DNA of 64,000 nt, from the sequence record OR352939.1. The stretch is one strand, 5' to 3'. Positions within the stretch are counted from its first letter, which is position 1. Each line of letters opens with the position of its first letter. A program made the position numbers and the translations under genes. A model generated the notes under the pieces. It did not search any database. It worked only from the letters and a program-made list of their open reading frames with translations, and was not told where the DNA came from. Positions 32,372 to 49,010 of the stretch are shown piece after piece. This DNA comes from Escherichia phage AV109.

Positions 32372-32410
32372 TTTATTCTCCAAATTTACTCATTTCGTTT
32401 CGATAGGTCT

Positions 32411-32439: not shown

Positions 32440-32441
32440 AA

Positions 32442-32660
32442 TTATTTGCGACGAGATTTTTTGGTAAGAGGTTGAAAGAACACTGCTTTACCAGCAGGAG
32501 TCAAAGTGACTCGTAATGCATTACCGATTCCCAAGGATGCTTTAACCAGACCTTTAGATTTCAGTTCACCGAATGCTTGACGTTGGTCTGCATCACGAGT
32601 GTTAACCATAAGACCTTTATCACCAGCTTCACGAATCATTTCTAACATTTTGGTTTTCAT
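32442..32660 (-). CDS. hypothetical basic protein (about 72 aa)
   Basis: Start MKTKMLEMI with SD GGAGAA; track ORF extends upstream into the promoter. Confidence 0.45.
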   Translation of the reverse strand: MKTKMLEMIREAGDKGLMVNTRDADQRQAFGELKSKGLVKASLGIGNALRVTLTPAGKAVFFQPLTKKSRRK

Positions 32661-32688
32661 TTTGTTCTCCTCTTGTTTTGATAGGTCT

Positions 32689-32717
32689 ATAATAACATAT
32701 CCTAAAAGCATGTACAC
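32689..32717 (-). promoter_or_regulatory. early promoter variant (GTGTAC -35, TATTAT -10)
   Basis: Same gataggtctataataacat core as the promoters at 30933 and 32411. Confidence 0.4.
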
Positions 32718-32763
32718 TACTTTTTAAAAATATTTGACCCCCTAAAGGGCCCGAAGGCCCTTA

Positions 32764-35467: not shown

Positions 35468-35496
35468 ACTATAACACAACCTGAGGAGAAGTAAAC
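35468..35496 (-). promoter_or_regulatory. T4-type early promoter whose spacer carries the complement of the downstream SD
   Basis: Minus strand GTTTAC, TTCTCCTC in spacer, TATAGT, then GAGGAGAA SD. Confidence 0.5.
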
Positions 35497-35505: not shown

Positions 35506-35534
35506 CAAAAAAGCCCCAACCTTTCGGAAGGGGC
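35506..35534 (-). terminator. rho-independent terminator, copy 1 of a repeated GC-hairpin family
   Basis: Minus strand GCCCCTTCC-GAAA-GGTTGGGGC followed by TTTTTTG; immediately after the stop of the 35540 gene. Confidence 0.55.
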
Positions 35535-35539
35535 TTTGA

Positions 35540-36097
35540 TTAGTTTTTGTAATATCGTAAAGGGTTGATATGGAATGAAAGCATTGCGCGTGGAATAGGA
35601 CGACTCAAAAGACTCTTAAGTTTCCAACCACAGTAAACACGCAGATAAAATGTAATACCACCGACCTTAAGATAAGGTATAGCAGCGAATAATCCCCATG
35701 CAGACTCGTTCCAAACTAAAAGATATCCATGATGTGCCGGATCAGGAGATCCAGATTTAGTTTCGGCGTTGCCTTTATAGTGCCATTCTGATGAAGCTTC
35801 GCGACCTAAAACATGATACGAAAAATTATATGCTTTGTTGCGCCATAGCCAAGCTACGCGTTGAGCATATTTACCTATAACAGGAATTTTACGTATTTTA
35901 GACCAACGTTCAACATGGCCGCGGTCACCATCGATAGGATTATCGTAAGTCATCATCCAGTCAAAGCCATAAGGTAGTTTACCGGTTTTTTCACTATGGA
36001 ATGGAACTACAAATGGTGCTAGAATAATTGCTAAAATCGCTGCGATCCAATCTATAGGAACAAGAACAACCCAACTTACATATTTTAAAAATTTCAT
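35540..36097 (-). CDS. membrane-anchored protein (185 aa)
   Basis: N-terminal hydrophobic WVVLVPIDWIAAILAIILAPFVVPF. Confidence 0.5.
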   Translation of the reverse strand: MKFLKYVSWVVLVPIDWIAAILAIILAPFVVPFHSEKTGKLPYGFDWMMTYDNPIDGDRGHVERWSKIRKIPVIGKYAQRVAWLWRNKAYNFSYHVLGREASSEWHYKGNAETKSGSPDPAHHGYLLVWNESAWGLFAAIPYLKVGGITFYLRVYCGWKLKSLLSRPIPRAMLSFHINPLRYYKN

Positions 36098-36129
36098 ATA
36101 TCCTCTCTTAGTTTACAAGGATATTTATA

Positions 36130-36157
36130 CAAAAAGCCCCAACCTTTAGGAAGGGGC
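36130..36157 (-). terminator. rho-independent terminator, copy 2
   Basis: Same gccccaacc...ggaaggggc hairpin plus U-tract, downstream of rI. Confidence 0.55.
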
Positions 36158-36164
36158 TAGTAAA

Positions 36165-36467
36165 TTAGATAGATGTAGGCTCTAATTTTATTTTCATGAA
36201 CTCGGCAAATTGTCTGGCAGTTTTTATGCCTTGTTCATGACATTCAAATGCATCATCACAGGGGCTATTTTTGTAATGCTTTGCCATATACTTATAGAAT
36301 TTTTCAGAATTCTCGACATTTTGAATTTCAAACAAAGTATATACGTTTTTAATCCCTGATTCCATAAAGTTATCAAAATATGGGTCGATATATGCAGTAC
36401 CAACGATAGGAGTTGTTGCTGCAAAAAACCCCAGCATCGCCACAATGGCTATCGCTCTTAAGGCCAT
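36165..36467 (-). CDS. rI: lysis-inhibition regulator RI (antiholin)
   Basis: 100 aa; N-terminal signal-anchor MALRAIAIVAMLGFFA; DPYFDNFMESGIKNVYTLFE resembles T4 RI; SD AGGAGG. Confidence 0.85.
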   Translation of the reverse strand: MALRAIAIVAMLGFFAATTPIVGTAYIDPYFDNFMESGIKNVYTLFEIQNVENSEKFYKYMAKHYKNSPCDDAFECHEQGIKTARQFAEFMKIKLEPTSI

Positions 36468-36479
36468 ATAGGCCTCCTG

Positions 36480-36692
36480 TTAATTTTGGCCAGTATTTAT
36501 TTTTCGCCTTTGGACGGCCTTAACATCTGCGAGGTATTTTTCCAGCTTACGCTTACGAGTATAATCTGCTTTAGAACCAGTTTGACGGATATCCTCATTT
36601 AAATGAGAAATAGAATGTCCTAATTCTCTTCGGATTTCATCCAATTGGGTTACAGTAAGATTACGAAGTTGTCTTTCGTTTAATTGCTGCAT
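36480..36692 (-). CDS. hypothetical basic protein (70 aa)
   Basis: ORF with SD GAGGT between tk and rI. Confidence 0.45.
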
Positions 36693-36719
36693 ATATACCT
36701 CTTGGTTAGATATTAGTAT

Positions 36720-37301
36720 TTATAACAACCCTGTCAAATCGTTCCAATGCTTCCGGCATAATGACACGTATCTATCGGTATCACCAATTTCAATTTGACT
36801 GCCATCTGTAATTGGAAGTCCGTCTTCCGTGACTCTAGCTACCATTGTGGCTTTTTTACCGCAATGACAGACACCTTTAAGTTCAACAAGCTTATCGGCA
36901 ATAGCCATTAATGCTTGAGAACCTTCAAATAGATTACCTTTAAAATCCGTTCGTAGTCCATACGCCATTACCGGCACATTGTATACGTCAACAATACGAC
37001 TAAGTTGATACACCTTTTCAGTAGTTAAGAACTGAGCTTCGTCAACAAATACACAATGAATATCCTTTTGTGCTGCAGCCCATTTATAAAATTCAAAGAT
37101 ATCCATGTCTTTTGTAATTATATTGGCGTCCTGACGAATACCAATACGAGAGACTATTTCACCTTTTGAATCGCGAGTATCAATAGCCGGTTTAAGAACT
37201 AATACACCCATGCCACGTTCTTTATAGTTGTGTGCGGCAGTAAGTAATGAAGCAGACTTACCAGCGTTCATAGCGGCATATGTAAAAATTAAACTAGCCA
37301 T
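36720..37301 (-). CDS. tk: thymidine kinase
   Basis: 193 aa; Walker A AAMNAGKS, zinc-binding CHCGKKA...LCRKHW; matches T4 tk. Confidence 0.95.
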   Translation of the reverse strand: MASLIFTYAAMNAGKSASLLTAAHNYKERGMGVLVLKPAIDTRDSKGEIVSRIGIRQDANIITKDMDIFEFYKWAAAQKDIHCVFVDEAQFLTTEKVYQLSRIVDVYNVPVMAYGLRTDFKGNLFEGSQALMAIADKLVELKGVCHCGKKATMVARVTEDGLPITDGSQIEIGDTDRYVSLCRKHWNDLTGLL

Positions 37302-37310
37302 AAGAGTCCC

Positions 37311-37493
37311 TTATAGTGAATTCACGTAGTCAATGAGTTCTTGTTCTTTCCTGTCAAATGATTCCATCAATGCGTGATATTCTTCGTCCGTCAAAGGAGC
37401 ATATTCATCATACGCATTGGTGGCTGCTTGTTCATCCAATAGGTCATGGATAAGTTCGAACAGTTTAGCTTTCTCTTCTTTAGTTAATTTCAT
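37311..37493 (-). CDS. hypothetical acidic protein (60 aa)
   Basis: ORF. Confidence 0.4.
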   Translation of the reverse strand: MKLTKEEKAKLFELIHDLLDEQAATNAYDEYAPLTDEEYHALMESFDRKEQELIDYVNSL

Positions 37494-37984
37494 TTAGGTT
37501 CCCAATCAACAATCACAATTTCTAGTTTAGTGGAATACGTATCTAAAATCTCTTCGATGACATCCCAGTTTCCACCACCAATACCTGCACCAATTCTTGG
37601 CATATAAATTACAGGCTTTGTTATCTTATTCTTTCCGAATTCATTTAATTCTATTATACAATTCATTAAAGCAGAGTACTCAAAATTAGGTCCCGGCTCA
37701 AACTGTGTATAAAGATTAAAGCAATAAGCTTTATGGGTCTTAAAATATTTTTCATAAACCGAATAAGTCCCGAGTTTAGACTTGTCTCCGAATTCGGTTT
37801 GAAGTTTATCGGCTTCCAGAATTTTTGGATAAGCCTTTGCTAATTGTCCTGCCACACCAGCGCCCATTGTATGAAAACAATTACACCCGTGAGCAATATT
37901 ATTACCTTTAGAAAACAGGGCGACAATATCGCCCTTGATATAGTTTTTAATCACTTGCTGCAAGTCCTCTAGTATAAGAGTCAA
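37490..37984 (-). CDS. macro-domain protein (ADP-ribose binding/processing)
   Basis: 164 aa; GNNIAHGCNCFHTMGAGVAGQLAKAYP and GAGIGGGNW motifs typical of macro domains. Confidence 0.7.
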   Translation of the reverse strand: MTLILEDLQQVIKNYIKGDIVALFSKGNNIAHGCNCFHTMGAGVAGQLAKAYPKILEADKLQTEFGDKSKLGTYSVYEKYFKTHKAYCFNLYTQFEPGPNFEYSALMNCIIELNEFGKNKITKPVIYMPRIGAGIGGGNWDVIEEILDTYSTKLEIVIVDWEPK

Positions 37985-38294
37985 CTAGACGGTCCACCAT
38001 AGAATTGCATGCTGCCTTATCTTTAGGTTCCGCCACCGAGCATTCTAATATTTGCCATTTTTTATAGTATCTTTTAATTAAGGTAGATGCCTTGAACCTA
38101 CTAGACACCCCATCTTTTTCTCCGTCTTTATACGCATATAACAATTTTTGTGAAAAATCTACTTTACACTCTCGACTTTTACCACAATAATCAGACGCCG
38201 TTCTGTTTGTATACTCCGTTACATCAGTATATGTAGTATTAGCAAGAGCGTTAAATGAAACCAAGCCAACTATTAAAGCCAACATTTTGGTCAT
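37947..38294 (-). CDS. secreted/periplasmic protein with signal peptide (115 aa)
   Basis: N-terminal MTKMLALIVGLVSFNALA; four Cys. Confidence 0.45.
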   Translation of the reverse strand: MTKMLALIVGLVSFNALANTTYTDVTEYTNRTASDYCGKSRECKVDFSQKLLYAYKDGEKDGVSSRFKASTLIKRYYKKWQILECSVAEPKDKAACNSMVDRLVDSYTRGLAASD

Positions 38295-38833
38295 TCTTTT
38301 ATTTCCAGTAGTTTATTTGATTTAAGGTAATTAGCCTTTTCTAGGACTTCAGAAGCATATTTACTTCCAGCACTTGTCTTCCATCCTGCATTATATGAGG
38401 ATATAGCTTTTCTTATATCCCCATTATGTATATTTAACCAATAAGAAAATTCGATATAAGCCCATCTGGCTGAATTAGACCGCTTAGATAGCATTTTCTT
38501 AATTTGGGCATCAGACATATTATAACCAAGCTGGTTAATTCTTGCCCTCATTGTTGGTAGATAATTTTGGAACATTCCATACGCATGGTGACCTTTCTTA
38601 TCTTTAAGATTAATACCGGCAGATGATTCCTGCCATAGTATTGCGGCCATTATGTATCCAAGTCCTTTCTTATGCATATTTTCATGCGTTTTAAATTTTC
38701 CGTCCTTAGAAAACTGTTCCCCAAACTGATAAGCATAATTCAAGTTATCGAGTTGGACATTACTAAAAGTATGCTCGGAGCTATGTGCTGATAACGAAAG
38801 AGCAAATAGACCAGCGAGTAGTGCTTTTCTCAT
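38291..38833 (-). CDS. secreted lytic-transglycosylase-like protein (SLT-type motifs)
   Basis: Signal peptide MRKALLAGLFALSLSAHS; WQESSAG, GMFQ and SYNAGW resemble SLT catalytic motifs. Confidence 0.5.
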   Translation of the reverse strand: MRKALLAGLFALSLSAHSSEHTFSNVQLDNLNYAYQFGEQFSKDGKFKTHENMHKKGLGYIMAAILWQESSAGINLKDKKGHHAYGMFQNYLPTMRARINQLGYNMSDAQIKKMLSKRSNSARWAYIEFSYWLNIHNGDIRKAISSYNAGWKTSAGSKYASEVLEKANYLKSNKLLEIKE

Positions 38834-38841
38834 GTTTACCT

Positions 38842-39300
38842 CTAGATTTTAATCACTGCTTTAGAAGCTTTTCCTGGTAGTCGTTTACTGTTAATAATAG
38901 CCATTCTACATTGAAGAGTCTTCATTTTGAATGCCGGATTTTCGCGACAAACTGTAAGTCCTAACCAAAGATTTCCGTCAGTTATTTCTAAACGGCCTGG
39001 GCGATATTCGACACCTTCGACAAAATCTTCATCAACATCCGGACGTGCCGGCATTGATAAAAATTCTGCAACTTCTTTAACGTGATTTTTTACTTTATGA
39101 AATAATTCAAAAACGTAATTCTCATCTATTTCTCTCTGGATGGCACGATCTAAGAGATGTTGAGAATACTTGATATGAAAGCCTGGTAGTCCAAGAGACT
39201 TTGCAGCATCTTTTATACCGGCATTTATTTTGCGGAACTCCGTTTCAAAGATTCGACGGAGTTTATTACGGCGGATAAAAACATCCGAATTGATAGTCAT
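38842..39300 (-). CDS. regB: RegB sequence-specific endoribonuclease
   Basis: 152 aa; MTINSDVFIRRNKLRRIFETEFRKINAGIKDAAKSLGLPGFHIKYSQHLLDRAIQREIDENYVFELFHK matches T4 RegB. Confidence 0.92.
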   Translation of the reverse strand: MTINSDVFIRRNKLRRIFETEFRKINAGIKDAAKSLGLPGFHIKYSQHLLDRAIQREIDENYVFELFHKVKNHVKEVAEFLSMPARPDVDEDFVEGVEYRPGRLEITDGNLWLGLTVCRENPAFKMKTLQCRMAIINSKRLPGKASKAVIKI

Positions 39301-39328
39301 TTTGATTTCTCCTCTAGTTGACAGGTCT

Positions 39329-39357
39329 ATAGTAACACAACTAGAGGAGAAGTAAAC
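39329..39357 (-). promoter_or_regulatory. T4-type early promoter for regB with 12-bp inverted repeat spanning spacer and SD
   Basis: Minus strand GTTTAC, TTCTCCTCTAGTTG in spacer, TACTAT, then CAACTAGAGGAGAA. Confidence 0.5.
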
Positions 39358-39361
39358 TACT

Positions 39362-39577
39362 TTATTGATAAAATGGAGTTAAAGCCCAGGATTCTTTAGA
39401 TACTATATTGGCGAAATGCCTCATCTCTTCGATTTGGCGACGACGCTGGTCAGCATAGTCTTCTTCGCCTTCTTCCTTACAGTCTTCAAGGTCTTCTTCA
39501 AGATACTTTAAGTATTCACTACAAATTTTGTTGACCTTTTCTTGGAAGTCCAATAACCCAGTAATAGTAGAAGCCAT
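39362..39577 (-). CDS. hypothetical acidic protein (71 aa)
   Basis: ORF. Confidence 0.4.
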   Translation of the reverse strand: MASTITGLLDFQEKVNKICSEYLKYLEEDLEDCKEEGEEDYADQRRRQIEEMRHFANIVSKESWALTPFYQ

Positions 39578-39843
39578 TAGTATTTTTCCTCAGGTCGAAA
39601 TACCGCACGACATGCCCACATGCTGGCTTCTTTTAGATGTTGCTTAGCATACTTAAGAGCCTGCACTGCATCCATATCTTCTTTGGTTTGTTGCTCTGTT
39701 TCATTTTCTTTCAAGATATATGCTTCTTCAATCAGAGCATCAAACATCAATCCAAGACGGACTTCGGCATCTTTAATAGCGTTCACTTTACTGATTTTAT
39801 CATCGGTATGCGGCTTGTAGCCTTTGATGTCTTCAATCGACAT
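39577..39843 (-). CDS. hypothetical protein; start uncertain
   Basis: Track ORF 39577..40011 overlaps the next ORF; internal Met MSIEDIKGYK is the likely start. Confidence 0.35.
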   Translation of the reverse strand: MSIEDIKGYKPHTDDKISKVNAIKDAEVRLGLMFDALIEEAYILKENETEQQTKEDMDAVQALKYAKQHLKEASMWACRAVFRPEEKY

Positions 39844-40057
39844 AAGGAATTTCCTCATCAGTGGCAAGGTCATATTCGACCAATTGGATAGGCTCATTAA
39901 TACCATATCCACGTACAGTGATATCGGTTGACGGATAGTTTCCAGTAATATCACCCATTCTAAATGCTTCAATGAATGATTGCTCGCCTGAGCAACTAAA
40001 CCAGGCGGCAAAACATTTTAAAACATCTTCAGACCCTTCTATAATCAATTTAGCCAT
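39833..40057 (-). CDS. hypothetical acidic protein (74 aa)
   Basis: ORF; start abuts stop of GrcA-like gene. Confidence 0.4.
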   Translation of the reverse strand: MAKLIIEGSEDVLKCFAAWFSCSGEQSFIEAFRMGDITGNYPSTDITVRGYGINEPIQLVEYDLATDEEIPYVD

Positions 40058-40419
40058 TATAGACTCTCAGTAAAGGTACGAGCGATAACGTCGCGCTGCT
40101 GTTCCGGAGTCAGAGAGTTAAAGCGAACTGCATAACCGGATACACGGATGGTCAGCTGCGGATATTTTTCTGGATGCTTAACTGCATCTTCTAGAGTTTC
40201 ACGACGCAGAACGTTAACGTTCAGATGTTGACCACCTTCAATTTTAACTTTAGGTTGATGTTCAATTTCAATTTCACGGGCATTCAAACCGTAGAAAATT
40301 TCCGGGTCTACAATAGCGTCTTCTTTAAAAGTCTTAGAGACAATAATCCGGGCTTGAGTACCGTCTTCAAAATAAATAGTGCCTTTATGTGCACCTTCAA
40401 GAATTTGATATGCTTTCAT
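40057..40419 (-). CDS. autonomous glycyl-radical cofactor GrcA/YfiD-like protein
   Basis: 120 aa; C-terminal [63 protein letters not shown] carries the glycyl-radical RVSGYAV motif and closely matches E. coli GrcA as I recall it. Confidence 0.85.
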
Positions 40420-40425
40420 ATAACC

Positions 40426-40734
40426 TCAGTTAGAAAATAAATTTATCCAAGTTTTTTCTTTAATCAAAAATGGGTCGGAATTAAACGCCATTAAACTTTG
40501 AGTGATTAATCCCTTAAATGGCCCATCAATAAATTCCATTTTGAAATGCGGAATACTAGTCATCAACCGTGCATTAGGAGCAGTACAAAGAACCTGCTGC
40601 CCTGCGAACGGTCCTTTAGTCAAACGGTATCGTTTAGGTTTAAAATGGTAAATCTCGTAATTTTCTACAAGAGCCATTTTATTGCATACTTGGCTGTTAT
40701 AACAATATTCAAAAACTTCAATAGTGGTCATCAT
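40426..40734 (-). CDS. hypothetical protein (102 aa)
   Basis: ORF. Confidence 0.45.
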   Translation of the reverse strand: MMTTIEVFEYCYNSQVCNKMALVENYEIYHFKPKRYRLTKGPFAGQQVLCTAPNARLMTSIPHFKMEFIDGPFKGLITQSLMAFNSDPFLIKEKTWINLFSN

Positions 40735-41270
40735 TGCATTCCAATCACAAAAAATTGAGGACGAGCATTACCGCCGATGCAATATTTGCTTTTGCAACAG
40801 TGTTGGACTGTTTTAATATGTACATTGTAAATCTTATCCATATCAGGAGCTTTAATAGGCTCGTCAATTATGTACAGAATACGAGAAAGCGTTAATCCAC
40901 GGAATTTAGAACCTTCATTGCCAATAAAACTACGAACAGAATCAGTAAATAAACGGAATCGAATATCGTCGCTAGAATAACGAGAAAATTCTTTTTTAAT
41001 GTTGCCGGCAGAAATTTTAGCATAAGCTGAAGTATTAGAAAGAACAATAACTGTTCCACCATCATACAGCCAATTAACAGCAAAATTAGTTACTGCGGTC
41101 GATTTACCTGATTGTCTGCCGCCGTCTAAACGAAGTGTACAGTACTGCTTGAGTACGTCTTCAAATGGTGGGACATAACCGTTCTTACAAATTTCTTCTA
41201 CTCTAGCATCAGAATGGTGTGTAAAAGCATTCATCAGGGATAGATAAGGACCAGTTAAAAATGTTCTCAT
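40731..41270 (-). CDS. P-loop protein (179 aa), function unknown
   Basis: Walker A-like GGRQSGKST; 4-nt overlap with downstream ORF. Confidence 0.5.
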   Translation of the reverse strand: MRTFLTGPYLSLMNAFTHHSDARVEEICKNGYVPPFEDVLKQYCTLRLDGGRQSGKSTAVTNFAVNWLYDGGTVIVLSNTSAYAKISAGNIKKEFSRYSSDDIRFRLFTDSVRSFIGNEGSKFRGLTLSRILYIIDEPIKAPDMDKIYNVHIKTVQHCCKSKYCIGGNARPQFFVIGMQ

Positions 41271-41351
41271 TTAGTTTCTCTTTTAGGTTGGGCCATTCCG
41301 TGGCGCATGAATTGTCCATTTCTGTATTTACCCCTCCAAGTAATTATGAAT

Positions 41352-41381
41352 ATACTATCACAATTCTAGGAGAAAGTAAAC
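41352..41381 (-). promoter_or_regulatory. early-promoter-like element
   Basis: Minus strand GTTTAC, about 18 nt, TAGTAT. Confidence 0.35.
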
Positions 41382-41383
41382 TG

Positions 41384-41686
41384 TTATTTACCTTTAATTA
41401 CTTTAGCTGCTTCGATAGCCGCTTGCTGAAGGTCATCCATAGACATACCGAATTTAGAAGCAAAGTTATCAATTTTCTTTTCGACAGCATTCAAAGGCTT
41501 GGCCTGTTTACCTTCATTAGCGCCAGGAAGAGCGAGAATACGCTCTTTGTCAATATAAAGGCTTACAAGTTTCTTACGGTCTTTATCGGACAAATCATGA
41601 AATGAATGGGCCTTTTTATTTATAGCGGCTTCTAATTTACCTGCACTCACTCGCGCTTCAGTAATAAATTCTTGATATGTTTTCAT
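41384..41686 (-). CDS. internal-protein-like, N-terminal capsid-targeting leader MKTYQEFITEA
   Basis: 100 aa; leader matches the T4 IP capsid-targeting sequence. Confidence 0.6.
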   Translation of the reverse strand: MKTYQEFITEARVSAGKLEAAINKKAHSFHDLSDKDRKKLVSLYIDKERILALPGANEGKQAKPLNAVEKKIDNFASKFGMSMDDLQQAAIEAAKVIKGK

Positions 41687-41727
41687 ATGTTTCCTTTAAA
41701 TGTAAATAGGCCTAAGTATTGGCCTTA

Positions 41728-42306
41728 TTAATTACCACGGGCTGCATTAGCAACGGCATAAGCATACTGAACATTAGCGTCCTTAAACGTACCTTTAGAG
41801 GTATCTATTTCTGCCTTAAAGCCGCCTTTAGTCATAACATCGGCAAATTCTTTACGGAAAGCCATTGCATCAAGACCTTTCCATGACGATTTATGCTTGG
41901 CAAATTCAAGACCGGCGTAGTTGACAGCCTTAGCTAATTTATTATCAATAACCCATTTACCTGCTTTAGGCACAAACTTCGGGCCTTTTTGTTTAGAGAA
42001 CAGTTTTAAATTCCAGCGACGAAGATCACTGTCGGCTTTAACAAAAGCTGCGTCTAAGTTACTAGCAACAACATCTTCAATATGAGCAAATTTAAGACCG
42101 TCAACTTCAATATTTAGATCGTTACGCCAACGAAGTCCTTCCCAAGCGAAGGCTTTAAAATCAGAAGCTTTTGTGGCTAGATATCGTTCAAGTGGAGCAG
42201 TTTTAGGGTCAAAGCCGTTTCCGCCACGATAAGTCCACTCGTCCTTATTAATGCCTTGAGCTTTTCCTGCAAAGGCCTCGGCGATAAATTCTTTATATGT
42301 TTTCAT
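41728..42306 (-). CDS. internal protein, IPIII-like size, leader MKTYKEFIAEA
   Basis: 192 aa; SD AGGAAAC; basic protein. Confidence 0.65.
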   Translation of the reverse strand: MKTYKEFIAEAFAGKAQGINKDEWTYRGGNGFDPKTAPLERYLATKASDFKAFAWEGLRWRNDLNIEVDGLKFAHIEDVVASNLDAAFVKADSDLRRWNLKLFSKQKGPKFVPKAGKWVIDNKLAKAVNYAGLEFAKHKSSWKGLDAMAFRKEFADVMTKGGFKAEIDTSKGTFKDANVQYAYAVANAARGN

Positions 42307-42327
42307 TTTTGTTTCCTTGTTTGTTTT

Positions 42328-42366
42328 GATAGAGTAATTATACCATATTAATACTTAAGCGTAAAC
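42328..42366 (-). promoter_or_regulatory. T4-type early promoter (GTTTAC / TATAAT)
   Basis: Minus strand GTTTAC, 18 nt, TATAAT, SD AGGAAAC. Confidence 0.5.
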
Positions 42367-42369
42367 AAT

Positions 42370-42630
42370 TTAAGCTTTACCGCCAGAAATAATTCCGAAG
42401 TTGTTAAAATCGTACCCAATATCGTCAACATCTACTTTAGGACTTACTACAACATAAGCAATTTCACTACGTTTTGCATAGGTGTTGATTTCTTTACCAT
42501 CGCCACCTAAGAAAGAATACCCATTACGTTTTAATGAGCCAAAGTCTTCGGCATCACCAATGAAAGCTTTAACTTTAAATTTAGGACCTTTGGCATCTGC
42601 TTCAGCGATAAATTCTTGATACATTTTCAT
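42370..42630 (-). CDS. internal-protein-like, leader MKMYQEFIAEA
   Basis: 86 aa. Confidence 0.6.
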   Translation of the reverse strand: MKMYQEFIAEADAKGPKFKVKAFIGDAEDFGSLKRNGYSFLGGDGKEINTYAKRSEIAYVVVSPKVDVDDIGYDFNNFGIISGGKA

Positions 42631-42636
42631 TTTTCC

Positions 42637-43050
42637 TTAGTAAATTGATTTACCATAGTATTTGTACCAAGTCGGACGTTGAGCAATTTTTTCATCTAAG
42701 CGTGCTTGACTTATCGCAATGGACGCTTCAGACGGGACGTAATTATTACGAAATTCTATAGGAATGTCGGAAATATCCTGGACAGTCGTGTCCTTGATTT
42801 TGAAACCACGTTTCAAGCATTCAGCGATTAGTTCGATTTGACGTAAACGTAAAAATTCGAGTTTGTCGTAAAAGAATGTTACGTGACCTGTGCCTAAGAT
42901 AAATGTTGGAGAGATTTTAAAATCCTTTACACGTTTACCGTTTTGAACATGTTTACGGACTGCACCAAATACGCGTGGTAATTCACGATACTCAGCCATA
43001 AGATGTTGGTCGGTCAGTTCAGAAACAAGTGTTAAATTGATACGGGTCAT
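42637..43050 (-). CDS. denV: endonuclease V (pyrimidine-dimer DNA glycosylase/AP lyase)
   Basis: [41 protein letters not shown] matches T4 DenV; ATG at 43050 with SD GGAGGAA (track start 43062 is TTG). Confidence 0.96.
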
Positions 43051-43077
43051 AATTTCCTCCAAGTAGTTGATGAATGT

Positions 43078-43107
43078 ATAGTATCAAAGTCCTTGGAGGA
43101 AGTAAAC
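43078..43107 (-). promoter_or_regulatory. T4-type early promoter with 10-bp SD/anti-SD inverted repeat
   Basis: Minus strand GTTTAC, TTCCTCCAAG in spacer, TACTAT, then CTTGGAGGAA SD for denV. Confidence 0.5.
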
Positions 43108-43108
43108 A

Positions 43109-43390
43109 CTATTTTTCTGAAGCGCCTGAAATATATTTTTCAAGACGTTGTTTCATTAGCGAGCCGTTCTTAGCGATTTCTTCCGGTTTATCGCACATAC
43201 GTAACAAGGCTTCAAGCTTAGCGATATCGCTGGTACGTTCAAATTTGCGAGTATCTATCTTACTAGCAAGTTCAGAAATACGTGCTAATAGACTTTCAGC
43301 TTCAACCAAAGCTGCACCTAGCTTAGTTGCAAATGTGTCAGTAGCTTCATTAAGAATAGATTCTGATAAAAATTCATTGTATGTTTTCAT
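43109..43390 (-). CDS. internal-protein-like (IPII-like position), leader [11 protein letters not shown]
   Basis: Start at internal Met of track ORF 43109..43405. Confidence 0.6.
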
Positions 43391-43875
43391 ATATACGCTT
43401 TCCAAGTTCCTGTTTTAAATGTTGAGATTACGCGTTTCGCGCGATTAGGTGTCTGACGATACCATTTAGATTGGGCTAGATTTACTGCCGCTTCGTCCCA
43501 ACGTTTCTGTTGAAGCATACGAAGAGAATTAGTAAAACCGGCGACGCCTGCTACACCCATTTGGAAGACCATATTGACCAATGCACATCGACGAACCGCA
43601 TCTAAAGAATCATATACCGGTTTAAGTTTAGCATTACCCAAGATTCCGCGAACGGCTTTATCAACGTCTTCATTAAATAGCTTTTCAGCCTCATCGAGGG
43701 TAATTGTACCGTTGCATTTACGTCCGATCATTCTGTCAAGTTCAGCTTTAGCTACGGCTAAAGACGGGTTCTTTGTTACTAAATGGCCTATGCCAATCGT
43801 CCAAAAGCCTTCAGTGTCTTTGTATAAAGTTAGTCTAAGACCTTCGTCATTACGAAGCATTTCAAATATATTCAT
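43387..43875 (-). CDS. e: lysozyme (endolysin)
   Basis: [59 protein letters not shown] matches T4 lysozyme; track ORF has 4 extra N-terminal codons. Confidence 0.97.
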
Positions 43876-43903
43876 AATACCTCCCACATTTATAGGAGGT
43901 ATT
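43876..43903 (-). promoter_or_regulatory. SD-sequestering hairpin with embedded late-promoter-like box upstream of gene e
   Basis: Minus strand AATACCTCC-TATAAATGTG-GGAGGTATT then ATG; 9-bp stem pairs the SD, loop carries TATAAATG. Confidence 0.5.
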
Positions 43904-43909
43904 TATTAC

Positions 43910-44368
43910 TTATAGGAGGGTAGTGAGCACCTTATATAATGATTTGCCCATTACATATTCCCATTGAGAAGGTTTAATTAAAGCGAATGCATCAAATTCA
44001 GGAATCTGACGTCCGTCTGGGAATGTATGATAGGAATTACAAACACTGTTTCTGAATTGCTCGTGCTCTACAGGGATGGTATATAGGAACAGATGAATAT
44101 TCTTATTATCTGAGTAATGATGTTCACCTAGGTCTTTCAGGAAGGCAGGGTCATATTGTGTAAACCCAGTTTCTTCTTCGCATTCACGAATAGCGGCTTC
44201 AATAGGAGATTCGCCAGGTTCGACATGGCCTTTAGGAATATCCCACCGATGAGCTAAAGAACCTTTAGGACGAGAACCAGTTACACGCCCCATGAATAAT
44301 TCTTTATCTTCGGTAAGGAAAATAATACCGGCTGATAGTTCTTTCACTTTATTTTTCTTACTCATCAT
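43910..44368 (-). CDS. nudE: Nudix hydrolase NudE
   Basis: 152 aa; Nudix box GHVEPGESPIEAAIRECEEETG. Confidence 0.88.
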   Translation of the reverse strand: MMSKKNKVKELSAGIIFLTEDKELFMGRVTGSRPKGSLAHRWDIPKGHVEPGESPIEAAIRECEEETGFTQYDPAFLKDLGEHHYSDNKNIHLFLYTIPVEHEQFRNSVCNSYHTFPDGRQIPEFDAFALIKPSQWEYVMGKSLYKVLTTLL

Positions 44369-44609
44369 CTCGGTCCCATGATTTGGCCATTAATTCGGAC
44401 ATAAATTCTTCAATGCGCGTTTCTTTAGATGGACTTTCACTATTAGAGACCGCAAGTTTGTAATCTGCAATAGGACAGAACATATCAAGGTCCATATTAA
44501 GGTCGTCTTTGATTTTTTCTTCTGACACATCTTTATCGTATGTGTACAGATAACTATCACATGATTCTGATTTAATGTAAATTGCTATACTCATCTCAAA
44601 TTCCTGCAT
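44358..44609 (-). CDS. hypothetical acidic protein (83 aa)
   Basis: ORF. Confidence 0.4.
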   Translation of the reverse strand: MQEFEMSIAIYIKSESCDSYLYTYDKDVSEEKIKDDLNMDLDMFCPIADYKLAVSNSESPSKETRIEEFMSELMAKSWDRDDE

Positions 44610-44827
44610 TCGGTAATAAAACGTTCAACTTCATTATTCTTGGCTTTTATCTTGTCTTTATGTTCTTGTAAACTACTTTTAATAAGATTAATAATGATAG
44701 CGACAGTGCCGCCGCCAATGATGCCACCAATAATACTTACGATAGTAGATGCTAATAAGATAGCAATAATATCAACAAAACCGAAAGAACTCACCTTAGT
44801 ACTAAAAAAACCATATAGACGGTACAA
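44591..44827 (-). CDS. small membrane protein (78 aa), non-ATG start likely
   Basis: Hydrophobic FGFVDIIAILLASTIVSIIGGIIGGGTVAIIINLI. Confidence 0.4.
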   Translation of the reverse strand: MYRLYGFFSTKVSSFGFVDIIAILLASTIVSIIGGIIGGGTVAIIINLIKSSLQEHKDKIKAKNNEVERFITECRNLR

Positions 44828-44922
44828 ATATAATCCATCCTGTTATCCATTGGCACTTATTGAAAAACTTTTCAAGCTCAGCTTGAGTTGTTCGTATTAC
44901 TTCATCGATAGGTTGATATCCG

Positions 44923-45072
44923 TTAATGTATCTGTTCACGATAATACCTGCTGACTGGTCCGATTTTAAATTCTTGGCAAATATGTTTCACTAAGTATGA
45001 TGGACATCCTGTCCAATCTACTGAATAGTATGAAATACCTTCATTGCCGTCGTCTATATTATTGTTAATCAT
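44923..45072 (-). CDS. possible small ORF (49 aa), not in ORF track
   Basis: ATG overlaps stop of upstream gene (TAATG); MINNNIDDGNEGISYYSVDWTGCPSYLVKHICQEFKIGPVSRYYREQIH. Confidence 0.35.
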   Translation of the reverse strand: MINNNIDDGNEGISYYSVDWTGCPSYLVKHICQEFKIGPVSRYYREQIH

Positions 45073-45758
45073 TACCAGCCTTCCATAGGGAATTCCAGAT
45101 AAACTTGAGCATTGACACGAATTTCATTGGTAATCTTTTTAACTCGGTCTGTATTACGAGATACACGTCCGAACCAACGCCATCCGTTACTAATTGCACG
45201 AGAACCAGTGTGCCATGTTTGCCAATCAAATTGAAGAAGAGTACGGTCTGGAGCTTCCCATTTCTCTAGTTCGCCTTTTTCGATTTTTTCGAGGACTTCT
45301 TTGTGCCACTGGCGATAGATAAGTTCGCCATCAGGAATCTGACTGAACTCTGCAGTTCCTGTTGCAAAATGAGTAGGACACACATCAGCGTTAACAAGAC
45401 CAAGAATATGTTCAGACAAATAGCGAGGATTGTCATAGTCAGGTTGTCCTGCAGTAATAAAGTGTTGACCAACTGGAATATCAGGGCGTGGAACATCGTC
45501 ATGGTGATATCCAGGAATAGCAGGGTACCAGCCAGGCATCAGCATGTGGACTCGTGAATCAAATACAACATCCGAGTCTTTCCAATCGTCAGGGAGATTT
45601 TGGATAAAGCTACGAGTAATTGGACCGCCATTATCAAAAGCAAAATTCAAATCGCAATTAAAGAACATAGGCTCGTTTTTAATCTGGCCATTTTTAATCG
45701 CATGAGCAAAACCACCTACTGCACGAGCTTGACTATTAAACACTTTAGAACTATTCAT
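45072..45758 (-). CDS. hypothetical protein (228 aa)
   Basis: ORF; 3-nt gap to upstream ORF. Confidence 0.5.
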   Translation of the reverse strand: MNSSKVFNSQARAVGGFAHAIKNGQIKNEPMFFNCDLNFAFDNGGPITRSFIQNLPDDWKDSDVVFDSRVHMLMPGWYPAIPGYHHDDVPRPDIPVGQHFITAGQPDYDNPRYLSEHILGLVNADVCPTHFATGTAEFSQIPDGELIYRQWHKEVLEKIEKGELEKWEAPDRTLLQFDWQTWHTGSRAISNGWRWFGRVSRNTDRVKKITNEIRVNAQVYLEFPMEGW

Positions 45759-45759
45759 A

Positions 45760-46065
45760 TTATTTTCCTCGGCATTCTTTAATGAAATTTTCTAGATTGG
45801 TAGATTCAATAGCTTTTTTACGAGCTTCTGCATGTTCTTCTTCGGACAATTTACATTTATAATTGACCCAGACATTATGGTCGAAACTAGTCGTGGCATA
45901 TAATAACAATGCTCCAACGAATAGCAAAAACGGTGATAAGAATACAAAACCAGGAACACCATCCATACTGTAAGCCTTTTGTAATACTGCAACAGAAAGA
46001 GCTGCGTAAAAAGGTGATGCAAATATTGTTAAAAGACCAATTCGGTTGGTTTCGCCTAATTTCAT
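45760..46065 (-). CDS. membrane protein (101 aa)
   Basis: Hydrophobic segments; SD GAGGAG. Confidence 0.5.
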   Translation of the reverse strand: MKLGETNRIGLLTIFASPFYAALSVAVLQKAYSMDGVPGFVFLSPFLLFVGALLLYATTSFDHNVWVNYKCKLSEEEHAEARKKAIESTNLENFIKECRGK

Positions 46066-46093
46066 AATATTCTCCTCATGTTTTAATAGGACT

Positions 46094-46123
46094 ACTATAA
46101 CATAATCCTATAATTATGTAAAC
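46094..46123 (-). promoter_or_regulatory. T4-type early promoter with ataggacta palindrome
   Basis: Minus strand GTTTAC, 18 nt, TATAGT. Confidence 0.5.
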
Positions 46124-46135
46124 AGTTTTGCGAAA

Positions 46136-47092
46136 TTATTTGAAAGGTTTTACCATATGAAAATTTTCTTTAAACCGTTTGATGTAATCATTTTTGCCGA
46201 GCTTATGATACATAGCCACTACTTCATAATAGTTCTCGTATGCGTACTCACGGAACCAACCGGAGGTGATGCTTGTGCAGACTTTTTCTAATGCCATCAT
46301 GAAACTGGCTTCAGGGTTAATTTTAAAGTCATTAGGAATTTGAGAACGTTCTAATGCTAGTACACATGATTCTTCATATACACCAGCCAGTTTAATCATT
46401 TCGGGTAACGATTCGAACTTCTCGCGTGAGGTCATGACTTCAGAACCGTCTTTCATATAAAATGTATACGCTGGACGGTCTGTTAGTGCAATGGCTTCAT
46501 GAATAGTATCATGGTCATATGTATAGATGTCATCTTTAAAGAACGCACTTTTAGAAGTGTCAAGAACTGGGTGAGCATAGTTCAAGGTTTCTTTCTGGCG
46601 TTTCAGCATAATTTCAGTAAGTTCATCGTTCAGTGTAACACCTTTACCACGAAGATACTGAATATGGTTCATAGTCTTTAAAAAGAATGGATTATTTTTC
46701 TTGAAACGATGAGACATCTTAATTGCAAGACCTATCTCAGGAGTTGCCCAGTAAAACCCGTTCAAACGGTCTTTAGACAAATTTTTCTTGGCGTATTTTA
46801 AAAGGTCATAAGAAGACGTGAAATCTTCAGGAGTGAGTTCACCGACTAATTCACGGACATTAGTGATTGCCGGAACAATATATGCTTCAAAATGAGTTTC
46901 GCGTCCATTATGGAAGCATTTGAAAACTTGGACATCAGGGTTATCTTGGTGAACATATACACCCATCATTTGATTTTTGAATGCATTCCAAGAACCTTGG
47001 TCCGCAATAAAGTCCCAATCGCTATTTTTGATAGCGCTAGAATCAATAAGACCATGATAGTGAAGTGCACGAGAACCAATAACTAACATCAT
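46136..47092 (-). CDS. hypothetical protein with N-terminal nucleotidyltransferase-like signature (318 aa)
   Basis: VIGSRALHYHGLIDSSAIKNSDWDFI fits the GS...DxD pattern; weak. Confidence 0.4.
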   Translation of the reverse strand: MMLVIGSRALHYHGLIDSSAIKNSDWDFIADQGSWNAFKNQMMGVYVHQDNPDVQVFKCFHNGRETHFEAYIVPAITNVRELVGELTPEDFTSSYDLLKYAKKNLSKDRLNGFYWATPEIGLAIKMSHRFKKNNPFFLKTMNHIQYLRGKGVTLNDELTEIMLKRQKETLNYAHPVLDTSKSAFFKDDIYTYDHDTIHEAIALTDRPAYTFYMKDGSEVMTSREKFESLPEMIKLAGVYEESCVLALERSQIPNDFKINPEASFMMALEKVCTSITSGWFREYAYENYYEVVAMYHKLGKNDYIKRFKENFHMVKPFK

Positions 47093-47120
47093 AATATTTT
47101 CCTCGGATTAATTCATTAAC

Positions 47121-47360
47121 TTAAATTTCACGACATGCGATATTATATTCGTCCCAGAGGTCATCGTGTGAAGCCTCTACCAATGGAACGATTGTACCGT
47201 TTATGTCTTCATTATAAGGGCAAATTGTACAGTGCGCATCTTCGAATCGGATGCCTTTGTGTTCAGATTTTTTATAACGCATATCGAATATCTTTGCAAA
47301 CTTTTCACGAGTAATGGTTTTAGCAACCACTTTGGTTCCGATACTTTCGTAATAAATCAT
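47121..47360 (-). CDS. hypothetical protein (about 79 aa)
   Basis: Second ATG with SD GGAG is the likely start; track ORF starts at 47372. Confidence 0.4.
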   Translation of the reverse strand: MIYYESIGTKVVAKTITREKFAKIFDMRYKKSEHKGIRFEDAHCTICPYNEDINGTIVPLVEASHDDLWDEYNIACREI

Positions 47361-47388
47361 TGTGGACTCCATTTGTTTTGATAGGACT

Positions 47389-47418
47389 ACTGTAACATAG
47401 CCCTATCTTGTTGTAAAC
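47389..47418 (-). promoter_or_regulatory. T4-type early promoter
   Basis: Minus strand GTTTAC, 18 nt, TACAGT; ataggactactgtaacatagccctat core. Confidence 0.45.
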
Positions 47419-47422
47419 TGTT

Positions 47423-47620
47423 TTAGCAAGAATAACTAGATGATACCCAGCCTTGAACAGTGATACTATTGTGGGATAATGAGATCGCGTCCTGGAGATT
47501 CAGACCTGCGTTATCTTCAATCCATAATGTAACTTCTTCGCGTTCTTCTGTTGCAATTTGGAACAGGTTTTCCAGAGCAGCTACTGCCGTACGTACAGCA
47601 CAATCTAATTCACGAGACAT
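47423..47620 (-). CDS. small protein, member 1 of a tandem paralog trio with C-terminal GxWVxSSxxC tail
   Basis: 65 aa ending VQGWVSSSYSC. Confidence 0.5.
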   Translation of the reverse strand: MSRELDCAVRTAVAALENLFQIATEEREEVTLWIEDNAGLNLQDAISLSHNSITVQGWVSSSYSC

Positions 47621-47629
47621 ATGGTTTCC

Positions 47630-47902
47630 TTAGCAAGTGTGAGAAGATGCGACCCAACCGCCATCTTCAAGGCTCAGGTTGTAGTCGTATTGGTAAACGT
47701 CAGCCCATTCAGCCTGGCCGTTTTTTGTACAACGTTCAAGATCGGCTTTAAGATGTCCGGGTGAATGATAGGTTCCACCCATACCATAAGCTGGATACAA
47801 GTCAAATGTTGTGTTTTGTTTATCAGCAATTTCTTTGGCAGCCTCAATAGCTGCATAGATTTTTGCTACAGCTTCAGCCAGTTCGGTTTGTTCTTTAGAC
47901 AT
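47630..47902 (-). CDS. small protein, member 2 of the tandem trio
   Basis: 90 aa ending DGGWVASSHTC; stop followed by AAGGAAACC SD of next gene. Confidence 0.5.
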   Translation of the reverse strand: MSKEQTELAEAVAKIYAAIEAAKEIADKQNTTFDLYPAYGMGGTYHSPGHLKADLERCTKNGQAEWADVYQYDYNLSLEDGGWVASSHTC

Positions 47903-47911
47903 AACTATTCC

Positions 47912-48223
47912 TTAGCACAACGCAGAAGACGAAACCCAAGCACCATCTTTCTCTTCTACCCTTGATTTATCCCAAGAAATACTAATATATGATTCGCCAT
48001 CAATAGAAGTCGCCGGGTTTTTCTCTACTGTAAGACCTTCACTTTCCAGCCATTCAATAGTATTTGCGCATAAATCTGAAGAACACCTCATCGGAAACCG
48101 GCAAGATTTTTCACCTTTAGATGCTGCATCGTACATCTTTTCCAAAATACGCTTTTGCACGTTTTTAAAAATAGTTTCAGCAGATTCTTCAGATTTTTTA
48201 TTCAGTTCAGTGTAAAGACTCAT
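47912..48223 (-). CDS. small protein, member 3 of the tandem trio
   Basis: 103 aa ending DGAWVSSSALC; SD AGAGGAAAA. Confidence 0.5.
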   Translation of the reverse strand: MSLYTELNKKSEESAETIFKNVQKRILEKMYDAASKGEKSCRFPMRCSSDLCANTIEWLESEGLTVEKNPATSIDGESYISISWDKSRVEEKDGAWVSSSALC

Positions 48224-48251
48224 AACATTTTCCTCTATGGTTGATAAGTCT

Positions 48252-48280
48252 ATAGTATCATGTCCTTAGAAGAAGTAAAC
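48252..48280 (-). promoter_or_regulatory. T4-type early promoter
   Basis: Minus strand GTTTAC, 17 nt, TACTAT, SD AGAGGAAAA, ATG 48223. Confidence 0.5.
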
Positions 48281-48312
48281 ATCTTTATGAAATATTTTTA
48301 TGCCCTAGATAC

Positions 48313-48340
48313 CAAAAGGCCCCAACCATAAGGAAGGGGC
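48313..48340 (-). terminator. rho-independent terminator, copy 3
   Basis: ggccccaacc-ataa-ggaaggggc hairpin with minus-strand U-run, downstream of the 48347 gene. Confidence 0.5.
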
Positions 48341-48346
48341 ATTCTA

Positions 48347-48811
48347 TTATTTAATTTGTTTAGCAGACCAGATACGGTCTTTAATAAGTTTTTGGATATC
48401 TTCAACATACTCAAGGCTATGAGCGTGAGGATTATCTTTGAAGCTATGTGCTCGTGCCAGTTTCTGTCCTTCTGTTTTGATTACTAAAAGCTCTTTAAGA
48501 ATTGCTTCATACTTAGAAATAATTCCTTTGGCGATATTTTTTTCTTGAGCTGCTTTAGGGTCCACTTTTGGCGCAGGTGCTTTACCTGTAGCTTTCTGGA
48601 ACAATTCACCTGATGCAGCTAGGCTTTTAAAAACTCGGCTAACAGTATTAGCATTAGTAAAACCTTCGGCTTTAAAATCTCTAATAAAACGGAAACGTTC
48701 TTCATCAGAGGCGTCTTTGTAAGAATATTTACCTGCTTGAATTGCTGCAATCGCAGCGGCTTTTACATCTGAACTAGATTGTTCAGTCAAAAATTCAGCG
48801 TATGATTTCAT
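48347..48811 (-). CDS. internal-protein-like, leader MKSYAEFLTEQ
   Basis: 154 aa; Ala/Lys-rich. Confidence 0.55.
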   Translation of the reverse strand: MKSYAEFLTEQSSSDVKAAAIAAIQAGKYSYKDASDEERFRFIRDFKAEGFTNANTVSRVFKSLAASGELFQKATGKAPAPKVDPKAAQEKNIAKGIISKYEAILKELLVIKTEGQKLARAHSFKDNPHAHSLEYVEDIQKLIKDRIWSAKQIK

Positions 48812-48854
48812 GTTGCTTTTCCTAAGTTAATTAACTTATCTATTTATTATTATG

Positions 48855-48883
48855 CCAAAAAGCCCCGACCTTTCGGAAGGGGC
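48855..48883 (-). terminator. rho-independent terminator, copy 4, downstream of the tRNA region
   Basis: gccccgacc-tttc-ggaaggggc hairpin with minus-strand U-run. Confidence 0.55.
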
Positions 48884-48894
48884 TAAGCCTTGCG

Positions 48895-49010
48895 GCAACC
48901 TTGTCGGGGTTCCACCTGCTAAGGCAAGTGTTTGTACGAAACGCCGGGATTCGAACCAAGATAAAGGAGTTAACAGCTCCCAGTAATAACCTTTATACGA
49001 TGCACCATTT
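48895..49010 (-). other. tRNA-like remnant or small stable RNA candidate adjacent to the tRNA
   Basis: Minus strand has canonical T-loop GGTTCGAATCC and an anticodon-like stem-loop GGGAG-CTGTTAA-CTCCT, but I could not fold a clean acceptor/D/T cloverleaf. Confidence 0.25.

Follow-up and report, generated by a model that had tools for sequence, protein, structure and literature searches.

The window analysed here, a stretch of 64,000 nucleotides (nt) from Escherichia phage AV109 (sequence record OR352939.1), carries four copies of a GC-rich hairpin that form two direct-repeat pairs, each around exactly one gene. The earlier note on this DNA had recognized the four copies, all of which are present, and missed their arrangement in gene-bracketing pairs. 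The 16 kb around the hairpins are 100% identical to Escherichia phage AV114 (OR352944.1; Straboviridae, Tevenvirinae, Mosigvirus, RB69 group) and display 95-98% identity to many other Mosigviruses; a position in the AV114 record minus 95,974 gives the position in the window. Nearly all genes of this part of the genome are carried by the minus strand. One pair is located downstream of rI and the other at the end of the tRNA cluster.

Copies 2 and 1 border the first of these genes (35540..36097, minus strand), which encodes a membrane protein of 185 residues with a hydrophobic N-terminus, assigned to DUF7338 (Pfam, 6.7e-62) and phrog_2143 (PHROG, 5.4e-79). In AV114 it directly follows the antiholin gene rI, behind a late-promoter motif; its homologues are found in 551 phage records, Felixounavirus and jumbo phages included, and a few of the Felixounavirus records label them ‘holin’. 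Copies 4 and 3 border the second gene (48347..48811, minus strand), encoding 154 residues and belonging to phrog_2280 (PHROG, 2.4e-53). Its N-terminus, MKSYAEFLTE, aligns with those of the T4 internal proteins (IP) IPI, IPII and IPIII and of MX01 Ip7 and Ip9, with M1, K2, E6 and F7 invariant. It has the form of a capsid-targeting leader, of about 10 residues, ending in Glu and of the MKTYQEFIAE type with which T4 IPII and IPIII begin. To judge from this leader, the 154-residue protein (IP154 below) is probably an injected internal protein. Each of the injected T4 internal proteins disables a specific GmrSD-type restriction enzyme (PMC12373910). We also considered whether the 185-residue gene could be a translocated copy of PhAPEC2 gp133, the neighbour of the IP154 gene, and rejected this, BLASTP giving no similarity; gp133 is instead a paralogue of IP154, both belonging to phrog_2280.

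The pattern GCCCC(A/G)ACC-N4-GGAAGGGGC occurs four times in the window, starting at 35513, 36136, 48319 and 48862. The hairpins proper extend over 35513-35534, 36136-36157, 48319-48340 and 48862-48883, the positions given previously having begun ahead of them, in the preceding A-run. With one mismatch allowed, GCCCCNNCCNNNNGGNNGGGGC retrieves these four matches, against 0.00 expected from 100 dinucleotide-preserving shuffles. As minus-strand RNA, each copy is GCCCCUUCC-loop-GGUYGGGGC with 4-6 U behind it. Copy 1 with its U6 (35507..35534, minus strand) is GCCCCUUCC-GAAA-GGUUGGGGC-UUUUUU (-17.9 kcal/mol) and closes the DUF7338 cassette on the downstream side. Copy 2 with its U5 (36131..36157, minus strand), GCCCCUUCC-UAAA-GGUUGGGGC-UUUUU (-14.7 kcal/mol), forms the upstream boundary of the same cassette and is the presumed terminator after rI. 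Copy 3 with its interrupted tract (48314..48340, minus strand), GCCCCUUCC-UUAU-GGUUGGGGC-CUUUU (-17.0 kcal/mol), closes the IP-like cassette downstream, and copy 4 with its U5 (48857..48883, minus strand), GCCCCUUCC-GAAA-GGUCGGGGC-UUUUU, borders it upstream. The statement that only the loop varies (GAAA, UAAA, UUAU and GAAA on the RNA strand of copies 1 to 4) was therefore nearly right. It leaves out two substitutions: in the left arm of copy 4 a G replaces an A, so that the minus-strand RNA contains U.C and U.U in place of U.U/U.U, and copy 3 carries AAAAGG in place of AAAAAG, which puts a C into its U-tract. The conserved A-A mismatch described in the earlier note is lineage-specific, the orthologous site of T4-type phages being fully paired.

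In the predicted fold, a GC base of 5 bp is followed by a 2x2 internal loop (U.U/U.U), two further base pairs at the top and a tetraloop; with flanks included, the energies are -14.7 to -17.9 kcal/mol. The minimal element folds at -15.1 kcal/mol versus shuffle means near -8, and the plus-strand RNA of the hairpin is weaker (-12.3 kcal/mol) and without U-tract. All copies are intergenic and co-oriented with the genes: copies 1 to 3 start 5-7 nt after the stop codons of the 185-residue gene, rI and the 154-residue gene, respectively, and copy 4 follows an rnaC-like trailer. The location after a minus-strand gene or the tRNA region, with a U-run on the minus strand, was thus correctly described before, the tracts being U6, U5, C+U4 and U5, of which that of copy 3 is the weakest. 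In two relatives the orthologous hairpin is already annotated as a terminator, Rho-independent by ARNold in the PhAPEC2 record and by TransTermHP/WebGeSTer in that of SA79RD, where a T4 early promoter is annotated immediately downstream. This anatomy and context give good support to a terminator reading, which we regard as plausible.

The hairpin belongs to phages. As had been suggested, the rest of the genome was searched for copies: the whole AV114 genome (168,522 bp), assembled from the window and three fetched pieces, contains no full family member besides the four in the window, and one diverged relative. The latter (AV114 record 18031-18053, outside the window; minus-strand RNA GGCCCUUCC-AAAAA-GGUCGGGCC-U7) sits between convergent genes, immediately past the stop codon that ends a plus-strand helicase-like gene; a full-form hairpin in apparently the same context, with UUAGAAGUCUUCUUC downstream, is present in about 15 viral contigs whose size is T4-like. 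In scans of IMG/VR, which are samples, the exact mismatch-bearing stem was found in 95 stretches with 16 different loops, and in 90 of these 95 instances the same side carries a T-rich tract, with 5 T or more among 8 nt. By contrast, 5,426 complete E. coli genomes contain no copy, which rules out the origin of the element as a host terminator. Rfam searching gave tRNA-Met only and no match to the hairpin, and its sequence strings returned nothing relevant in the phage literature searched. Reuse of a terminator sequence is not unique to this hairpin, since AV114 has a second repeated terminator family, GGGAGAC-UUCG-GUCUCCC plus U-tract. Its two identical copies and two close variants lie outside the window, at record positions 33296-33313, 26329-26345, 50167 and 59165 (the latter two being L004:167-184 and 9165-9182).

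Comparison with relatives places the borders of gene presence and absence within the hairpin itself at both loci, and does so in several genera. Downstream of rI, the DUF7338 gene is present in 22 of the approximately 157 Mosigvirus records having the locus and missing from about 135. Records without the gene, RB69 included, align in two pieces, spanning about 474 nt versus about 1098 nt; the missing length of about 624 nt matches the 623-bp spacing of the repeats. These records keep one hairpin and the outer flanks. In PhAPEC2 and SA79RD, which have one hairpin each, the sequence upstream of it (...CUAAUUUACUA) corresponds to the flank of copy 2 and that downstream (UUUUUUGCAUUUAGCAGUUUAC...) to the flank of copy 1, the PhAPEC2-type empty site reading ...CUAAUUUACUA-GCCCCUUCC-loop-GGUUGGGGC-UUUUUUGCAUUUAGCAG... 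A single hairpin with the upstream flank of one copy and the downstream flank of the other implies a breakpoint inside the repeat.

At the tRNA-end locus, copy 4 is anchored across T-even genera by a conserved trailer together with the 3′ end of an rnaC-like (species 1) RNA (48884..48957, minus strand). The trailer itself (48884-48935, about 50 nt between the rnaC-like 3′ end and copy 4) is conserved in T4, Mosigvirus, Dhakavirus and Gaprivervirus, and holds a small GCC-GCAA-GGC hairpin in most lineages. Beyond it, 48936-49007 is tRNA-Asn in the GenBank record, and neither ARAGORN nor Rfam at the gathering threshold finds a tRNA there; its 3′ part, ending at 48957, and the T4 rnaC 3′ end share 93% identity. 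By its sequence this region may encode an rnaC-like or degenerate tRNA-like RNA rather than a functional tRNA.

Copy 4 is orthologous to the hairpin located downstream of rnaC in T4 (T4 record 70835-70856). The alignment, 93% identical over 106 nt, spans the rnaC 3′ end, trailer, hairpin and U-tract, and three of its seven differences fall in the four inner stem positions. Both hairpins have the GAAA loop, but the T4 stem is fully paired, with G.U and A-U where AV114 has U.C and U.U, and is about 4 kcal/mol more stable than the AV114 form. T4 also lacks a cassette at this site, and the hairpin is single within the examined 57-76 kb stretch. Here again the single hairpin combines two flanks, with the upstream flank of copy 4 and a downstream flank, UUUUUGGUAUCUAAGCC, matching the one after copy 3 (UUUUGGUAUCUAG).

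Using the trailer CCTTGTCGGGGTTCCACCTGC as an anchor and leaving the hairpin itself unconstrained, we collected this site from 14 viral contigs as well as from T4, MX01, DK-13 and PhAPEC2. What follows the hairpin U-tract differs among them: IP154 in two leader variants, other IP genes bearing the capsid-targeting leader, DUF7338, an IP gene and DUF7338 in tandem, or nothing. Empty sites are those of T4 and of contigs L029 and L136. In a BLAST survey, 47 records share the AV114 configuration. In Tequatroviruses sampled from the 385 records with 60-80% identity, the matching stretch (about 76%) starts immediately ahead of one hairpin and runs past the second to include the trailer. T4 and PST align only over hairpin and trailer; they lack the 154-residue gene, which many other T-evens possess. 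In PhAPEC2, two paralogous IP genes follow each other, the first with family hairpins on both sides and the second ending in an unrelated terminator.

The same gene can occupy either locus. DUF7338 follows rI in AV114 and is found at the tRNA-end locus in MX01 (Dhakavirus) and in DK-13 and L037 (Gaprivervirus-like). In MX01 it has a family hairpin on both sides with the same 623-bp period, and in DK-13 and L037 a family hairpin upstream only. With one gene at hairpin-marked loci that differ between genera, a hairpin-marked site must, as far as such comparisons can tell, have received an insertion at least once. L037 and L136 differ by the presence and absence of DUF7338, with the junction in GGGCTTTTTTATA, a stretch common to two different terminators.

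Each cassette also has the following order of predicted signals: an upstream terminator, a late promoter, the gene, a terminator, then an early promoter of the next gene. After copy 2, TATAAATA (36122..36129, minus strand), a perfect match to the T4 late-promoter consensus, lies 2 nt past the U-tract and 24 nt upstream of the DUF7338 start codon and is a putative late promoter. Most contigs of the anchor survey carry it 2-4 nt past the U-tract, and MX01 has the same motif after the hairpin. Between copy 4 and the IP-like gene, the putative late promoter AATAAATA (48841..48848, minus strand) matches 7 of the 8 consensus positions and is less convincing than the motif after copy 2. A late time of expression is apt for a protein that has to be packed into proheads. 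Directly after copy 1, ahead of a mobD.2a-like small gene, we predict a T4-type early promoter (35468..35495, minus strand; GTTTACT-16/17-TATAGT), matched by a promoter scanner as TTTACT-16-TATAGT with TG; the SA79RD record has a T4 early promoter annotated at the orthologous site. After copy 3, ahead of the e.8-side gene, a putative one can be read from the sequence (48252..48280, minus strand; GTTTAC-17-TACTAT). It scores below the threshold of a simple scanner, and an equivalent promoter follows the downstream hairpin in MX01.

These signals are not part of the repeat. When the four copies are aligned with their flanks, conservation is confined to hairpin and tract, and no homology of a whole module (AT-rich segment, -35, -10, Shine-Dalgarno) is seen; for copies 1 and 2, the hairpin with its A/U-tract (about 28 nt, one mismatch) is the sole common sequence. 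A Shine-Dalgarno segment, TAACTTAGGAAA, is common to some cassettes at the tRNA-end locus only. In L192:1-760 (from an IMG/VR contig of 170,527 nt), whose hairpin has lost one C (GGGC-U), the 5′ untranslated region of the MX01 DUF7338 gene (UUUUUUUGUAUAAAUAUGUAGUAAACUAACUUAGGAAAUAAUAUG) is fused to the IP154 open reading frame. Such a fusion points to the shared Shine-Dalgarno segment UAACUUAGGAAA as a possible second zone of crossover.

The hairpins themselves appear to keep traces of exchange. Those flanking a cassette usually carry the same lineage variant whatever the gene enclosed: UU in Mosigvirus, GGCCC..GGGCC with UU in Dhakavirus, and paired GA in T4-like contigs. In the IMG/VR contig L169 (172,379 nt) the pair around IP154 is mixed, with a Mosigvirus-type hairpin (GCCCC..GGGGC) upstream and a Dhakavirus-type one (GGCCC..GGGCC) downstream, at anchor offsets 36 and 684; to judge from this pair, L169 is a mosaic between lineages at the tRNA-end locus. 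Copy 4 looks like a chimera, having a UU-type 5′ arm together with the 3′ arm GGUCGGGGC, the exact complement of a GA-type 5′ arm. PhAPEC2 and SA79RD, whose flanks at the rI site are otherwise about 97% identical, differ there in the loop (GAAA and UUAU, respectively), and UUAU is also the loop of AV114 copy 3 at the other locus. The variant pairs, the mixed pair, the arms of copy 4 and the sharing of loops are such marks as crossover or gene conversion between family members would be expected to leave.

Taken together, we consider it likely that these hairpins are intrinsic (Rho-independent) terminators of minus-strand transcription, forming one phage-specific family in two direct-repeat pairs, which both insulate cassettes and act as patches of homology. 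The family itself, the orientation and context of its members, the single genes between them and the breakpoints within the hairpin are observed; that the hairpins terminate transcription, that the motifs act as promoters and that recombination made the copies alike is what we infer. Transcripts that arrive from rI or the tRNA/rnaC cluster would end at the upstream hairpin, and the enclosed gene would have a start of its own at the late-type promoter right past the U-tract. The cassette transcript would in turn end at the downstream hairpin, after which the next gene would be transcribed anew from a T4-type early promoter. Each enclosed gene would in this way be a transcriptionally insulated plug-in. 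As the sole sequence common to cassette ends, the 22-28-bp hairpin with its A/U-tract would serve as a homology patch for the general T4-type recombination and replication machinery. Recombination between flanking copies would remove the gene and leave one hairpin; recombination of a resident hairpin with a hairpin-bearing donor, either another phage or an excised circle, would insert the gene and duplicate the hairpin. The terminator reading of the earlier note fits all in silico tests, and left unexplained why four copies share their sequence, mismatch included.

These properties echo those of the PeSLs (promoter-early stem-loops) of phages RB49 and phi1, in which a terminator hairpin stands immediately before an early promoter; lacZ fusions show their terminator activity, and inverse PCR has revealed mini-circles that arise when flanking PeSLs recombine (Arbiol 2010, PMC2839356). 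Indels of the PeSL type are also described for T4/PST and KVP40/nt-1, together with a variant bearing a middle promoter, the PmSL (promoter-middle stem-loop; Comeau 2014, PMC4122927). Like PeSLs and PmSLs, the hairpins described here are multi-copy GC-rich stem-loop terminators (here predicted) that flank small accessory genes in hyperplastic regions, at places where close relatives differ by indels. The mechanism proposed for both is homologous recombination between copies that excises or integrates cassettes, and the promoters after copies 1 and 3 fit the T4/PST consensus TTTACW-N17-TAYWAT (PMC4122927). On the other hand, the copies have in common only the 22-28-nt hairpin and tract instead of a promoter/Shine-Dalgarno module, and copies 2 and 4 precede the late-type motifs TATAAATA and AATAAATA, not early or middle promoters. 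They are also far fewer than in RB49, 4-5 copies per genome with the four full ones in the rI/tk and e/tRNA accessory regions, and their stem, with its tandem U.U mismatch, is unlike the described GN-loop-CN and AGNA-loop-TCNT. Because its homology is restricted to the hairpin, late-type motifs follow two of four copies, the copy number is low and the stem differs, the family is by analogy one that works like PeSLs without being a clean member.

The cassette between copies 4 and 3 likewise recalls the polymorphic IP loci of T-even phages (Repoila et al. 1994, summarized in PMC2839356 and PMC12373910), as it carries an IP leader in a locus where the number, order and identity of IP genes vary. 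According to the description given in PMC2839356, the IP-associated elements of Repoila et al. 1994 are weaker, AT-rich stem-loops generally lacking poly-G; by that description, the present hairpin differs in being GC-rich with GGGG/CCCC runs. It differs from the IP loci also in bounding a non-IP gene, DUF7338, at another locus.

Several observations weigh against this reading of the hairpins as insulating terminators and homology patches, or restrict its reach. The U-tracts are short (4-6 U) and that of copy 3 is broken by a C, so that termination may be partial. The internal mismatch hides three of the four copies from a simple terminator scanner, which requires an uninterrupted stem. Covariation is weak: 12 stem variants contain one compensatory pair, a C-G to G-C change in Dhakavirus, and the score is reached in 38 of 500 shuffles, which is not significant. 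The family hairpin is not required at both ends of a cassette, since some cassettes end in an unrelated terminator (DK-13, PhAPEC2 gp133). The 16-kb region has many other breakpoints without it, PhAPEC2 aligning in 10 pieces, so that the family explains only part of the local plasticity. For each single event, such comparisons fit an insertion as well as a deletion. Finally, homology alone would not account for tandem U.U being commoner than paired forms among the viral contigs; possible reasons are that recombination has spread one successful variant, that a leakier terminator is selected for, or that the stem is specifically recognized.

One alternative would be that these are ordinary intrinsic terminators and nothing else, alike through a common ancestral terminator or because the stem is a good one, with indels nearby that are incidental, as accessory genes tend to be bordered by terminators in any case. 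The anatomy and the annotation in relatives agree with this as well, as do the unrelated terminators at some cassette ends and the numerous regional indels without this hairpin family. We nevertheless hold it to be improbable. It does not account for breakpoints within a 28-nt repeat at two loci in several genera, for copies 1 and 2 having no other sequence in common, for the same gene at both hairpin-marked loci in different genera, nor for chimeric or mixed hairpins and loop variants common to both loci.

A second alternative is a dedicated recombination site, in which a structure- or sequence-specific protein would recognize the mismatched folded stem and catalyse exchange, like at integron attC sites or with a targeted nuclease. 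Arbiol et al. speculated such specific recognition for the GGGG...CCCC stems of PeSLs (PMC2839356). The likeness to attC is real in that both are imperfect hairpins with conserved unpaired bases delimiting single-gene cassettes whose order or place varies. The occurrence of the exact mismatched stem with 16 loops in the 95 viral-contig stretches also goes in this direction, and so does the excess of the mismatched form over paired versions with the same 3′ arm and T-run, 31 versus about 12 among the matches listed. In that scan of viral-contig hairpins of the form GCCCC-NN-CC-N4-GGUUGGGGC plus T-run, tandem U.U accounts for 31, GG for 6, GA for 5, UG for 2 and AA for 1 of the matches listed, which include many unrelated hairpins and give only a rough gauge of variant frequencies. 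In addition, the inner stem positions at the tRNA-end site switch between discrete states (UU, UC, GA, AG) and no single-step intermediates were seen, the UU form being about 4.3 kcal/mol weaker than the paired forms.

However, the 261 annotated features of AV114 include no integrase or site-specific recombinase (an observation on annotation only, not a profile search of every open reading frame), and the annotated recombination genes are general ones: UvsX, gp46/47 and endonuclease VII. Cassette turnover can do without the mismatch, as the same cassette site of T4-type phages carries a fully paired stem, and one junction falls in a U-tract region common to two different terminators. Moreover, T4 in laboratory evolution undergoes deletions and amplifications at microhomologies of 6-10 bp (PMC9391042); a 22-28-bp repeat thus needs no dedicated enzyme. 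Unlike integron cassettes, those described here carry their own (predicted) promoters, and plain homology explains the empty sites and junctions. We therefore give little credence to a dedicated site. Equally doubtful to us is its wider form, in which the stem GCCCCUUCC/GGUUGGGGC, as folded DNA or RNA, would be specifically recognized by a phage or host factor promoting cassette capture. Such recognition would explain the recurrence of the stem in unrelated contexts with a free loop, its excess over paired variants and the discrete states. If true, it would give lytic T-even phages, and other coliphage groups with this stem, an integron-like acquisition of anti-defence and accessory genes.

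It is still less probable that the main role is post-transcriptional, as a 3′ stabiliser, a processing signal or the site of an RNA-binding protein, with termination secondary. Copy 4 does come after a processed tRNA/rnaC precursor, and the stem is conserved while loops vary, but Rfam has no match, the U-tract and strict orientation are hallmarks of termination, and the indel junctions at the DNA level would remain unexplained. That the hairpins are ends of a small selfish mobile element resembling miniature inverted-repeat transposable elements (MITEs) or repetitive extragenic palindromes (REPs), with passenger genes, is hardly credible despite the repeats around single genes and the same gene at two loci, as they are direct repeats of a short palindrome-like unit rather than terminal inverted repeats, no target-site duplication was seen, nor a cassette that had entered a formerly hairpin-free site with one, the cassettes carry neither transposase nor nuclease, there are only 4-5 copies per genome and empty sites keep the hairpin.

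A separate observation concerns the annotation of the neighbouring region. In AV114, ten consecutive coding sequences (window about 27,300-33,750) are labelled ‘thioredoxin’, and PhAPEC2 names the orthologue of the last one NrdC.11 nucleotidyltransferase. These labels probably reflect annotation carry-over and not an array of thioredoxins.

The finding leaves the understanding of terminators and of phage recombination unchanged, linker-type gene shuffling in T4-like phages being already described. It offers a search handle for accessory and anti-defence cassettes in new T-even genomes, and the hairpin-marked positions would be natural insulated insertion sites for the engineering of therapeutic phages. 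For the T-even family, it extends the PeSL idea to Mosigvirus, Dhakavirus and Gaprivervirus in the form of a minimal, hairpin-only linker with a putative late-promoter version, these hairpins marking two plug-in sites where RB69-like and T4-like phages would swap accessory genes.

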